Virus genome (UHGV): UHGV-0170560
Origin: a virus
DNA: 39,563 nucleotides
Strand: one strand, 5' to 3'
Below the pieces are notes generated by a model, which saw nothing but the letters and a program-made list of their open reading frames with translations, was not told where the DNA came from and ran no database searches. The translations under genes and the position numbers were made by a program. Below are positions 28,355 through 32,872 of this stretch, piece by piece; within the stretch, counting starts at the first letter, position 1; each line of letters opens with the position of its first letter.

Positions 28355-28696
28355 TCACACTATTAATTTAGTTTCATGCCAGCCTTTAGTCACCCAGCAT
28401 TGCGAGTCACCATTACACGGGCATGAATTAACGGGAACTTTCTCGCCGCACTTACCGCAACGTTTTCTGCTAATCGATTTTATACGCCCGCGCACGCGTG
28501 CATCATCCTGGCGGATCAGTAACGCTATATACTCACCAAATTCGTAAGGAGAACGCCCGGGGCGACGCGTGGCACAGTTACGTTCCAGCATTTCAATTTC
28601 CTGAGTATCAAGCACAATCTCCAGCTTACGTACACCGGATTCAGCTTGTCTGGCTCTCTGAGCGGCTTTGCGCTCTGCTGCTGATTTAGCCATCAA
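28355..28696 (-). CDS. Hypothetical Cys-rich protein (possible zinc-binding)
   Basis: 113 aa with CGKCGE...CPCNG cluster; no HNH His signature recognised. Confidence 0.45.
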   Translation of the reverse strand: MMAKSAAERKAAQRARQAESGVRKLEIVLDTQEIEMLERNCATRRPGRSPYEFGEYIALLIRQDDARVRGRIKSISRKRCGKCGEKVPVNSCPCNGDSQCWVTKGWHETKLIV

Positions 28697-28967: not shown

Positions 28968-29227
28968 TACCGCACCTCCAGTCTCCATACCGCCTGACCA
29001 ATCCGGCTGGCATAGGTATCTTTGGATACTGCTCCGTCTTTAGCCAGCTCCATAAGAATTTTGCGCAAATCTGCCGAACGCCATTCTTCATCAGGAAATT
29101 CCTTCTCCATTGCCAACCGCAGATTCCAGGTTGCCATCCTGAATTGATATTCCCCGCCGAGAGCTTTATCTTGCAGGGCAGCCCGGGAACGCATCACCTG
29201 CAAAACCTTCTCTTTTACATCCATCAT
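28967..29227 (-). CDS. Hypothetical protein
   Basis: 86 aa from ATG overlapping the upstream stop (ATGA). Confidence 0.45.
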   Translation of the reverse strand: MMDVKEKVLQVMRSRAALQDKALGGEYQFRMATWNLRLAMEKEFPDEEWRSADLRKILMELAKDGAVSKDTYASRIGQAVWRLEVR

Positions 29228-29799
29228 TTCGCCTCCTGCGGCGGTTCTGGTAGCGGCATCCAGTGTGACGGTTTCCACGACGCACCAGGAATTATCCACC
29301 CATCATTAGCGTCAGGATGACCCGGGATGTAAGTCGCCCATTTCATTCGCCAGTCACCTTTCCTGCCAAACTCCACGGCAACAAGAACGGCTGTTTTGGT
29401 ATCCGGCATTCGCTCACTACAGCTTATCCAACCATCCGGAGTTACCGGAGAGTTGCCATTTACATCGAAGTTTGGCTCTGCGTCCTGAACCAGGAGGATG
29501 TAACCATTCTTGGCCGTATCAAGTTCTAACGCCTCGGTGACGGTGCCGAAATAGCGATTACCTAAATCAGCATCACAAGTGCTTACATCAATGGAAACTT
29601 CCATCCCTTCGATTAATTCTGGCAAGTTGTAAGTTTGGCTTACAGGTTCTGCACTATCAGCTTCGCGCCGCTTCTGTAGCTCTGCTGCCATCGCTCTCAC
29701 GACTTCAACTGGTGCCCTTGCAGCAAACTCTATGTTGGTGATTAGCTCATTAAGATATTGCTCGCCTGGATACTGTTTCTTATCGGTTATAGTGGTCAT
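29224..29799 (-). CDS. DUF551-like protein
   Basis: 191 aa; C-terminal HWMPLPEPP motif characteristic of DUF551. Confidence 0.6.
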   Translation of the reverse strand: MTTITDKKQYPGEQYLNELITNIEFAARAPVEVVRAMAAELQKRREADSAEPVSQTYNLPELIEGMEVSIDVSTCDADLGNRYFGTVTEALELDTAKNGYILLVQDAEPNFDVNGNSPVTPDGWISCSERMPDTKTAVLVAVEFGRKGDWRMKWATYIPGHPDANDGWIIPGASWKPSHWMPLPEPPQEAK

Positions 29800-29800
29800 A

Positions 29801-30253
29801 TCACTCTCCTTTTCCCTGAAGCATGGCGGCACGACAGGCGTTCCAGCCTCTCACCTCTGCAATAGCGGCAACAGCATCGACCGCGTACATTTTAAGAGGG
29901 TTAGGCATTGGTTTTTCTTCAGGTACTACTGGAATGGGTGGGGCGGCGTAGACCTCAATAATTCCATTATCAATAGGCCATTCTCCATCCTTGAGGTAGT
30001 CACTTGTGCCGTCAACTTGCTGTTCTGCAATGTGGAATGCACCTATTGGTTTTGCCTCAAGCGATGCCAGAGCAATCCGCGCCAGCTCACGCACAACTTC
30101 AGGGGGAGCGTGACGGTCATTCAGGTCATCCCACAGACGTAGCATGTTATCGCTACCAGGGTGAACATCCTCATTAGTTCCGGCCAGCGCACTAATAACC
30201 TCATCGGCTGCTTCAATAATTTTCTGTGCCTGTTCTCTGGTAATAGTGGTCAT
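29801..30253 (-). CDS. Hypothetical protein (shares MTTIT N-terminus with the adjacent gene)
   Basis: 150-aa ORF with GAGGA RBS. Confidence 0.5.
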   Translation of the reverse strand: MTTITREQAQKIIEAADEVISALAGTNEDVHPGSDNMLRLWDDLNDRHAPPEVVRELARIALASLEAKPIGAFHIAEQQVDGTSDYLKDGEWPIDNGIIEVYAAPPIPVVPEEKPMPNPLKMYAVDAVAAIAEVRGWNACRAAMLQGKGE

Positions 30254-30459
30254 TTGTTAATCCTCAAAACTTTATGCCCTGGCGCAAAAGCACGCGTTTT
30301 GTCTTTGCTTATTCGCCAGCCATCCTTGCGCGCCTCTTTTGCACAGCCAGCCCATGACGTACCTATATACTCACCGAAGTCTGGCACTGGATATACACCT
30401 TCCGTACACTGGCGGCAGTCACAATAGAGATGCATGGTGTAACTTGCGGCAATAGACAT
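30250..30459 (-). CDS. Hypothetical small Cys-rich protein
   Basis: 69 aa from ATG with AGGAG RBS at 7 nt; CDCRQC...C pattern. Confidence 0.45.
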   Translation of the reverse strand: MSIAASYTMHLYCDCRQCTEGVYPVPDFGEYIGTSWAGCAKEARKDGWRISKDKTRAFAPGHKVLRINK

Positions 30460-30460
30460 A

Positions 30461-30652
30461 TCAGGCTCCTTTAGTGCGCAAGTGGTTTTTCCAGCGGTTT
30501 TGCGCCGCGCTGCGCTTATCTTTGATTCCCTCTCTGGCAATTCCAGAATATAAGTACAACACCACACGGCGATTGCTAACTCTCAACCACTGGCTGGGAT
30601 AGCAACGTCTGTATACACGGGAAATAAGCATCTTTGCCTTACGGTTTTTCAT
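30461..30652 (-). CDS. Hypothetical small basic protein
   Basis: 63 aa; ATGA overlap with the upstream gene. Confidence 0.4.
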   Translation of the reverse strand: MKNRKAKMLISRVYRRCYPSQWLRVSNRRVVLYLYSGIAREGIKDKRSAAQNRWKNHLRTKGA

Positions 30653-30825
30653 CGTTTTGCTCTCCTGCGTTTCTTTGCTTCGCGTCGTGCAGCCGCAATA
30701 CCGGTATGGCGGCGCTTTGGTGCCGGGATGATGTTGTCAGCCATCAGTACATGCGGCTTTGCAATTAGCGCAGAAGCCCAAAATCGAGTCGGATACGGTA
30801 ACAAGCCGATACATGCCACACGCAT
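30649..30825 (-). CDS. Hypothetical small protein with basic C-terminus
   Basis: 58 aa, below track cutoff; GGAGG RBS 7 nt upstream of ATG; my translation MRVACIGLLPYPTRFWASALIAKPHVLMADNIIPAPKRRHTGIAAARREAKKRRRAKR. Confidence 0.4.
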   Translation of the reverse strand: MRVACIGLLPYPTRFWASALIAKPHVLMADNIIPAPKRRHTGIAAARREAKKRRRAKR

Positions 30826-30828
30826 TAC

Positions 30829-31524
30829 TCACCTCCTTTGATGCGAATGCCAGCGGCGTGGCACATTAACTTCCACGATGCGCACAGTTGGTTTGTACAT
30901 CTCAATCGCTGTCAGCCAGTCAGCGCCAGTCATGCGCTTTTCTGCATCGCCATTAGTCCACTTAACCGGTACACCAATAGCCTTCATCGCGATTTCTATT
31001 TCCCCGGCAATGGCGCTTTTTCCGCAACCAGTAAAACCAGAAACAACGACAAGAACTTCACCTTTGGCTGGTTTTATTTCCCGTGCTTCCAGTTCTGCAA
31101 TACGCTTACTCCCATCCGAGATAACACCTTCGTAATACTCGCGTTGCTCGTTGAGTTTTGATTTTGCTTCCTCAAGCTCAACACGCAGCTTCCCTACCGT
31201 TAGCGCAATTTCCTCGTTCTCCTGGTCGCGGCGTTTGATGTATTGCTGGTTTCTTTCCCGTTCATCCAGAAGCGCCAGCACAGTAGCCGGATTGGCTGCG
31301 GCGATGAATTCAGCATTGGCCTGCTGTTCAGTTTGGAAATCTTCATCGAAACCGCTTTCAGGATGCGCTCCTTCAATTCTGCAAATGGGAATATATCCAG
31401 CAACTTCACGATGAATTAGTGCATCATCACCATCAAATCGGCCATCTCCATATTCGAGCGACCACTCGCCACACGTTGCTTTCTCTGCCGCCTCGCGCAG
31501 TGCCTGATAGTTAATTTCGCTCAC
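30829..31524 (-). CDS. Ea22-like protein with C-terminal Walker-A-like motif
   Basis: 231 aa; N-terminus MSEINYQALREAAEKATCGEWSLEY resembles lambdoid Ea22-family proteins; C-terminal GFTGCGKS. Confidence 0.55.
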   Translation of the reverse strand: MSEINYQALREAAEKATCGEWSLEYGDGRFDGDDALIHREVAGYIPICRIEGAHPESGFDEDFQTEQQANAEFIAAANPATVLALLDERERNQQYIKRRDQENEEIALTVGKLRVELEEAKSKLNEQREYYEGVISDGSKRIAELEAREIKPAKGEVLVVVSGFTGCGKSAIAGEIEIAMKAIGVPVKWTNGDAEKRMTGADWLTAIEMYKPTVRIVEVNVPRRWHSHQRR

Positions 31525-32755: not shown

Positions 32756-32872
32756 GATTTACCCCTTAGGTAATTAAAAACCACATAAGACATGAAATCA
32801 ATAGAAGTTAGAAGATTTTATTACCTTCTAGGTAATCATATAGACGTAAAAAAATGCGCTATCGCGCTGGTA

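Follow-up and report, generated by a model that had tools for sequence, protein, structure and literature searches.

The window analysed here, a 39,563-nucleotide stretch of viral DNA (UHGV virus genome UHGV-0170560), carries on its minus strand three consecutive, very short open reading frames (ORFs) of 58, 63 and 69 amino acids (aa), which we call orfA, orfB and orfC. We consider it quite likely that all three are genuine, very small protein-coding accessory genes and that together they make up one mobile mosaic cassette in the early "post-replication" operon. Taken individually, orfC is almost certainly a real gene, orfB very probably so, and orfA likely. The finding is an ordinary one: related phages already have the genes on record as hypothetical proteins, and what was found is unsurprising for a phage accessory region. 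An initial annotation of the window had placed three ORFs of these lengths at these positions, and reading the sequence confirmed them, together with the following Shine-Dalgarno (SD) sites and junctions.

30649..30825, minus strand: orfA, 58 aa, ATG start (phrog_13831)
30832..30837, minus strand: SD of orfA, AGGAGG, 6 nucleotides (nt) before the ATG
30461..30652, minus strand: orfB, 63 aa (phrog_1380)
30661..30666, minus strand: SD of orfB, AGGAGA, within the end of orfA, 8 nt before the ATG
30250..30459, minus strand: orfC, 69 aa (phrog_926)
30466..30471, minus strand: SD of orfC, AAGGAG
30457..30471, minus strand: linker AAGGAGCCTGATATG, comprising SD, orfB stop, 1 nt and orfC start; the 1-nt gap is conserved
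30250..30265, minus strand: junction from orfC to the following 150-aa gene, with SD GAGGA (30265..30261) and an ATGA overlap (30253..30250)

All three proteins match PHROG families over their full lengths in hidden Markov model (HMM) searches: orfA matches PHROG 13831 (E 6.9e-43, 1-58 of 58), orfB PHROG 1380 (E 9.7e-33, residues 1-62 against 1-61 of 62) and orfC PHROG 926 (E 2.2e-36, 1-69 of 69). Each of these families is annotated as function unknown. Selection on the three frames was assessed across 243 related viral loci, which yielded 49, 90 and 58 unique coding variants of orfA, orfB and orfC, respectively. The initial annotation had proposed comparing synonymous with non-synonymous change in each frame, and this comparison reveals a synonymous excess in every one of the claimed frames, with p-values that overstate independence because the compared sequences are related:

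orfA: substitutions at codon positions 1/2/3, 12/16/29; omega 0.40; p (excess synonymous) 6e-4
orfB: substitutions at codon positions 1/2/3, 34/34/56; omega 0.44; p (excess synonymous) 2e-5
orfC: substitutions at codon positions 1/2/3, 15/7/41; omega 0.19; p (excess synonymous) 1e-10

The remaining two sense frames have omega values of 0.84-1.56. Excess synonymous change is confined to the claimed frame and, as expected, to the antisense frame with the same third positions. Antisense genes were considered and rejected: most antisense frames contain consensus stops, and the sole signal mirrors third-position variation.

Insertions and deletions are similarly informative. The initial annotation had named frame-disrupting indels in otherwise conserved homologous regions as evidence that would count against the genes, and essentially none was found. 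When net gap length was scored in 45, 46 and 59 unique DNA variants of orfA, orfB and orfC, no net frameshifting indel was seen; the orfA indels are solely of -3 and -21 nt, and the gaps in orfB and orfC sum to multiples of three. The only clear exceptions are an orfA variant with a frameshifted tail (P0177) and an orfC flagged as frameshifted by the Prokaryotic Genome Annotation Pipeline (PGAP) inside a duplicated prophage cassette, and both look like decaying prophage copies. Lengths are held across diverged alleles, at 56-58 aa for orfA and 58-65 aa for orfB. The start codon of orfA varies between ATG and GTG, and all 58 orfC variants share one ATG start. Finally, when all six frames were scored with a three-periodic Markov model, for which the window's long genes served as the training set, the claimed frame came first for orfA, orfB and orfC.

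Several observations weigh on the other side, chiefly for orfA. The absolute Markov coding potential is near zero (-2.6, -1.8 and +0.8 bits/100 nt for orfA, orfB and orfC, against +6 to +9 for neighbouring genes), a level that fits foreign, compositionally odd genes. The gene orfA is the weakest case of the three: its best frame scores only just above one antisense frame (-2.6 vs -3.3), and its omega is just 0.40. PGAP leaves orfA unannotated in several genomes, although it calls the gene in another, as WP_001261587.1, and the P0177 variant is present on 95 contigs.

These same observations would be accommodated if orfA, and possibly orfB, were a translated spacer or linker whose peptide is itself irrelevant, the sequence being kept for recombination joints and for holding ribosomes on the mRNA, which would avoid Rho polarity and feed orfC. 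The constraint on the two frames is indeed moderate (omega 0.40-0.54), the core of orfB is hypervariable and indel-bearing (omega 0.54), the frameshifted orfA tail persists, and conservation in the block is highest at the gene ends and junctions. We nevertheless regard this explanation as unlikely. The synonymous excess is specific to the claimed frames (p 6e-4 and 2e-5), only indels of 3n occur, the lengths do not drift, and orfB has repeatedly been duplicated as an intact paralog. The N-terminus of orfB, MKNRKAK, is invariant (omega 0.11), and its synonymous divergence (pS 0.33) against a non-synonymous divergence (pN) of 0.05 marks a constraint at the level of the protein and not of the nucleotides. 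SNRR and the C-terminus SAAQNRWKNHLRTKG are conserved as well. Since pS at the two ends of orfB (about 0.32-0.33) is close to that of its core (0.45), the constraint on the ends acts on the protein and not on the DNA alone. Protein-coding genes therefore remain our preferred reading for all three ORFs.

Reading frames and probable translation as a chain

The initial annotation had remarked that one ORF falls below the cutoff of the ORF list and that one lies in an alternate frame to a longer listed ORF. Both remarks hold: orfA, at 58 aa, is under the 60-aa cutoff, and orfB is overlapped by a 105-aa ORF with a GTG start (30567..30250).

30250..30567, minus strand: 105-aa GTG ORF, read as orfC over-extended upstream across orfB and not as a gene (PHROG match, omega, Markov score)

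The opposite assignment, in which the 105-aa ORF is the true gene and orfB a spurious overlapping frame, draws on its being the longest ORF of the interval in the window and on N-terminally extended forms among a few database proteins, such as P0001 (104 aa) and P0004 (109 aa). We consider it very improbable, as four results point the other way. The PHROG 926 match of the 105-aa ORF is restricted to residues 37-105; the ATG start shared by all orfC variants lies at the shorter form; relatives have consensus stops in the orfC frame where it runs over orfB, with an omega of about 1.06-1.09; and in 30460..30567 the Markov score is -2.4 for the orfB frame vs -9.4 for the orfC frame. For annotation, the value of this result is that the 105-aa ORF can be replaced by orfB and orfC, and that orfA, which PGAP often skips, can be called. 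The description of the genes as hidden was only partly apt: PGAP omits orfA in some genomes, but phiV10 has all three annotated, and 933W, RefSeq chromosomes and plasmids of ~90 kb have orfB and orfC.

The linkage of the ORFs by ATGA or 1-nt junctions with good ribosome-binding sites, also claimed initially, was confirmed, and the layout fits translational coupling. The ATG of orfA stands 3 nt past the TGA of an upstream Ea22-like gene, the orfA stop and orfB ATG overlap as ATGA, a single nucleotide separates the orfB TGA from the orfC ATG, and orfC overlaps the next gene in a further ATGA, the SDs lying inside the upstream coding sequence. Among unique variants the ATGA geometry of the A/B junction is found in 40 of 43 and the 1-nt gap of the B/C junction in 46 of 48, and the ATGA junction between orfC and the next gene is kept in nearly all relatives. 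A search of the coding strand within the cassette revealed neither promoter-like nor terminator-like sites.

From this arrangement we propose that orfA, orfB and orfC are probably translated as a chain. They would share a minus-strand transcript with the Ea22-like gene, and a ribosome terminating 0-3 nt from the next start, beside its SD, would re-initiate there or unmask the site, so that the Ea22-like protein, the three small proteins and the product of the next gene would be made in linked amounts. The RNAs of the A/B and B/C junctions are less structured than shuffled sequences (z +1.1 and +1.5), and their starts are therefore open. At orfA the prediction differs.

30811..30866, minus strand: predicted hairpin over the orfA SD and ATG, with its 5' arm (30866..30856) in the end of the upstream gene (fold, z -0.71)

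We hypothesize from this fold that the hairpin may take part in the coupling of orfA: it would bury the SD and AUG and be opened by a ribosome terminating on the upstream gene, a classic arrangement for coupling. Many unrelated upstream genes are followed by an inner version of this hairpin. Two points speak against such a role, namely that the hairpin does not exceed shuffled sequences in stability and that both of its arms lie in conserved sequence, which yields no covariation. A conserved RNA element as the cause of the junction conservation was rejected, because a search of the region against Rfam gave a single sub-threshold chance match only and the junction RNAs fall below shuffled sequences in structure.

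A mosaic cassette and its surroundings

Aligned relatives define sharp limits for the conserved block.

30245..30855, minus strand: conserved mosaic module comprising the three genes and their junctions (mean pairwise identity)

Mean pairwise identity is ~0.35 outside this module and 0.76-0.98 within it, rising at ~30855 and falling after ~30245. The upstream border lies 30 nt before orfA, inside the end of whichever gene precedes. The most conserved parts are the A/B junction (30735..30631) and the B/C junction (30510..30420), at identities of 0.90-0.98, and the least conserved is the orfB core (30630..30511), at 0.6-0.8. Across loci the genes occur as A-B-C, A-B, B-C, B alone, C alone, B-B-C and C...A-B. 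In many loci A and B are separated by an apparent "insert" of 169-175 nt, which is a further intact orfB paralog (58-60 aa), and an insert of 916-985 nt between B and C contains two genes that use the same joints.

The joints themselves recur within the window. The 15-mer linker AAGGAGnnTGAtATG, which combines SD, stop, one nucleotide and start, has exactly two copies in the window, against 0.19 expected by chance, both on the minus strand: one at 30457..30471, between orfB and orfC, and one at 29797..29811, between the 150-aa gene and a DUF551 gene. The genes that precede the linker end in KGE or KGA. The genes starting at 30253 and 29799 both begin with MTTIT. Judged by their sequence, the linkers look like re-used recombination joints. 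SD-stop-start linkers and conserved gene ends would thereby serve as joints at which recombination swaps, inserts and duplicates modules.

The cassette is common in E. coli. Matches to one part of it or another occur in 1300 of 5426 complete E. coli genomes, 411 of the places being plasmid-borne, and also in 205 phage records, most of them of Shiga toxin (Stx) phages. In lambdoid, Stx and P22-like prophages (MB07011, 933W, O111:H8) its place is the exo-xis/ea region, in the leftward early operon, where it lies between recombination genes and xis/int and beside ea22; of these features of placement, only the adjacency to an Ea22-like gene is found in the window itself. The exo-xis/ea region has been linked to prophage induction in published work. 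Given how common the cassette is in E. coli, including the Stx phages of enterohaemorrhagic strains (EHEC), any function of the three genes would bear on this region.

Two further loci illustrate the spread of the cassette. A match to the full cassette, 89.8% identical across all 801 query nt, is present on plasmid pLD93-1-90kb (NZ_CP047663.1; L245, 3001..3800). In the plasmids of ~90 kb, which are probably P1-like phage-plasmids, the cassette is close to phd/doc and a DUF968 gene, and orfA is left unannotated by PGAP. The chromosome of E. coli O111:H8 NZ_CP077574.1 (L246, 727..2032) has the cassette twice in one prophage, as Ea22-B-C and then A-B-C; the second orfC is the one flagged as frameshifted, and partial genes lie between the copies, indicating duplication and decay in place.

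The window (39.6 kb) amounts to an essentially complete genome of an E. coli podophage that is phiV10/epsilon15-like and belongs to the genus Uetakevirus, with 96-97% identity to phiv142-3, vB_EcoP_PAS61, vB_EcoP_ZX5 and phiV10 across long stretches. The minus-strand order is a DnaT/helix-turn-helix (HTH) replication protein, a lambda-P-like gene, a weak terminator-like hairpin, a DUF1064 gene, two genes of no assigned function, the ead/Ea22-like gene, orfA, orfB, orfC, the 150-aa gene, the DUF551 gene, three further small genes and then the small and large terminase subunits. The immediate neighbours of the cassette are as follows.

30829..31524, minus strand: ead/Ea22-like gene, 231 aa (Pfam Ead_Ea22, E 4.9e-41)
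29801..30253, minus strand: 150-aa gene after orfC, starting MTTIT (matches to PHROG 5117, 60 and 660)

The final ~9 codons and the stop of the Ea22-like gene fall within the conserved cassette junction, in keeping with the rise of conservation at ~30855, and the body of the 150-aa gene lies beyond the conserved cassette. The C-terminal ~80 aa of the Ea22-like protein (30829..31080, minus strand) form an extension with a P-loop-like stretch, VVVVSGFTGCGKSAIAGEIE, that has weak APS-kinase and AAA_16 matches (E 0.06-0.1) and a separate match to PHROG 11761 (E 4e-33); by its sequence it may be a nucleotide-binding add-on to Ea22. The DUF551 ORF is listed as a 202-aa form with a GTG start (29224..29832, minus strand). 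It is probably over-extended, as the linker and the conserved MTTIT start indicate an ATG at 29799 and a protein of 191 aa. The terminator-like hairpin (32845..32872, minus strand; GCGC-GATA-GCGC, then T7) immediately follows the lambda-P-like gene and corresponds to a terminator annotated in phiV10; the consensus terminator scan did not pick it up. The last early gene (28355..28692, minus strand) encodes a Cys-rich protein like phiV10 p55. A database protein, P0041, is a chimera of orfC residues 1-31 and the C-terminal half of this gene; the join, at a shared FGEYI motif, implies a deletion that arose through recombination at a short stretch of common sequence.

Properties and possible roles of the proteins

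Searches of orfA, orfB and orfC against Pfam at E up to 1, and against NCBIfam and PADLOC at E up to 0.1, returned no match. No relatives among solved structures were found for the three proteins, literature searches by locus tag and peptide string gave nothing relevant to them, and the supplements of a large screen of phage accessory genes do not contain them.

The proteins encoded by orfA and orfB are extremely basic. The orfA protein has a hydrophobic N-terminal half followed by an Arg/Lys-rich tail, KRRHTGIAAARREAKKRRRAKR, with an isoelectric point (pI) of 12.0, a net charge of +12.7 and 15 Lys+Arg; orfB has a pI of 11.6, a net charge of +15.6 and 18 Lys+Arg. Homologues of both were found in Enterobacteriaceae prophages only. 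Their composition tentatively suggests binding to nucleic acid or another polyanionic partner as the foremost candidate role. The AlphaFold2 (AF2) model of orfB comprises a helix, three strands and a helix, and no match to it was found in the PDB.

For orfA there is a different possibility, namely that it is a small Kil- or Hok-type membrane-active peptide which serves as a toxin or takes part in division or lysis. The hydrophobic N-terminal half would then be the part in use, with the cationic tail on the cytoplasmic side. The pattern of a hydrophobic stretch (residues 3-28) before a +12 tail is of this kind, and a profile search gave a faint match to a single-pass light-harvesting alpha subunit (E 0.15). 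That PDB match is not significant, no family match was found, the segment includes Pro, Arg and Thr, and the highest 19-residue Kyte-Doolittle mean, 1.24, is below the usual membrane-helix threshold of 1.6. A membrane-active orfA thus appears distinctly improbable, and a polyanion-binding role for orfA and orfB, tentative as it is, is the one we favour.

The Cys cluster that the initial annotation had noticed in one ORF belongs to orfC, which has Cys at positions 13, 15, 18 and 39, a CxCxxC motif and a distal His62. A word-seeded search returned enterobacterial relatives only. An exhaustive profile search returned 398 representative clusters (50% identity representatives), mostly of 60-80 aa, some of which may be false matches because the profile also has nine hits within the fibronectin type II repeats of P0230, a eukaryote-type matrix-metalloproteinase-like protein of 697 aa. 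This match is almost certainly spurious, an alignment of Cys/Trp-rich repeats with each other. The family motif is LYCDCxxC ... ARxxGWxI ... C-x-AP-x-H. Among 54 family members, the ligand-like positions are occupied in 100% (C13), 74% (C15) and 87% (C18), and distally in 56% (C57) or 30% (C59) and 96% (H/C62). The window's orfC is without C57 and C59 and would use C13, C15, C18 and H62.

For orfC, AF2 predicts four short strands and two helices, at moderate confidence (predicted local distance difference test, pLDDT, 78). The orfC matches in BFVD are uncharacterised phage proteins only, for example from Klebsiella phage KpS110, and no fold match confirms a known zinc fold. The 54 family members gave nothing meaningful against Pfam, which does not cover the family, and the names of the clusters of distant relatives are 'hypothetical protein' only. 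Comparison of the three proteins with solved structures by sequence, using single sequences and profiles, gave nothing significant, the best orfC match being a ZF-HD homeobox protein at E 0.063. Kinship of orfC with lambda Ea8.5 or Orf55 was rejected (profile hhalign probability 0.3%). From its motif, orfC might be a small alpha/beta protein that putatively binds one zinc via Cys13, Cys15, Cys18 and His62, a suggestion about as guarded as that for orfA and orfB. Our best guess from the sequence is that such a small zinc protein would dock on a host or phage partner. Against these biochemical proposals stand the low confidence of the orfB model (pLDDT 68.5) and the fact that composition is the sole basis for both nucleic-acid binding by orfA and orfB and zinc binding by orfC.

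The initial annotation had suggested that small basic or Cys-rich proteins of this region are often host-takeover or anti-restriction factors. This is a generic statement, and no family, structure or literature link was found to support it for the three proteins. Such a role, or one in counter-defence, does have some circumstantial appeal: the accessory block of early genes to which they belong is highly mosaic, and an arms race would be consistent with the hypervariable core of orfB and with the loop formed by orfC residues 20-27 (omega about 1.0). Phage accessory regions of this sort have been described as enriched in counter-defence genes (bioRxiv 10.1101/2023.04.06.535777). None of the three, however, has a match in Pfam, NCBIfam or PADLOC or appears in the accessory-gene screen supplements, and the strongly basic orfA and orfB are opposite in charge to classic DNA-mimic anti-restriction proteins, which are acidic. 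We therefore rate this role as improbable. By analogy with other exo-xis/ea genes, all three are probably dispensable modulators of host or phage physiology.

The orfC family spans at least 398 clusters from temperate and virulent phages of several hosts and has no Pfam, NCBIfam or PDB relative. A more ambitious synthesis, which we would put forward only as a long shot, is that orfC founds a large, unnamed family of ~70-aa putative zinc proteins, that orfB is a tandemly amplifying, hyper-basic protein whose termini are invariant and whose core evolves fast, that the products act together as specificity-swapping host-interaction or counter-defence factors, and that the linkers are plug-and-play joints through which such micro-genes pass between phages, prophages and phage-plasmids. 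The unnamed orfC family and the conserved ends of orfB around a variable core are, in any case, reasonable targets for small-protein studies.

Comparison with known systems

Ral and Lar are early restriction-alleviation proteins of phages and prophages, of about 60-70 aa and with several cysteines. The three proteins differ from them in having no Pfam match at E up to 1, and the orfC motif LYCDCxxC...ARxxGWxI...APGH marks a separate family. The Arg/Lys-rich tail of orfA and the short Arg/Lys-rich termini of orfB recall RNA binders with an Arg-rich motif, such as the N-terminus of lambdoid N, although the resemblance is compositional only and no homology was found, nor, with no search aimed at it, any RNA partner of the nut or boxB kind.

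The region had also been called nin-like, which is correct as to position: the block sits between the replication and packaging genes, downstream of the former and before the small terminase. Like the lambda nin region, it is a set of tightly packed micro-genes between replication and late genes, behind a terminator-like hairpin; the nin micro-genes have overlapping stop and start codons. The name does not extend to homology, as Pfam searches at E up to 1 tied none of the three to a nin gene family, and most relatives carry the cassette in the leftward ea region instead.

The exo-xis (ea) genes that lambda and the Stx phages carry (orf60a, orf63, orf61, orf73, ea8.5, orf55) are likewise tiny early genes beside ea22. 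They are without sequence relation to the three, which have no match to Pfam DUF1317 or DUF1382. The exo-xis region is described as modulating the lysis-lysogeny decision (PMC3824215, PMC8614690), and Ea8.5 and Orf73 are zinc proteins (PMC8614690). This literature treats orf60a, orf63, orf61, orf73, ea22, ea8.5 and orf55 and none of the three ORFs.

The closest counterpart is phiV10, itself a Uetakevirus. It differs from the window in an extra, partly overlapping orfB paralog (p50 and p51, against a single orfB here) and in the gene that follows orfC. Its p49, p50/p51 and p52 are nonetheless the same genes as orfA, orfB and orfC, with 100%, 98% and 96% amino-acid identity, respectively. Labelled there as hypothetical or of unknown function, they share the order, the junctions and the position downstream of an Ea22-like gene that characterize the cassette of the window.

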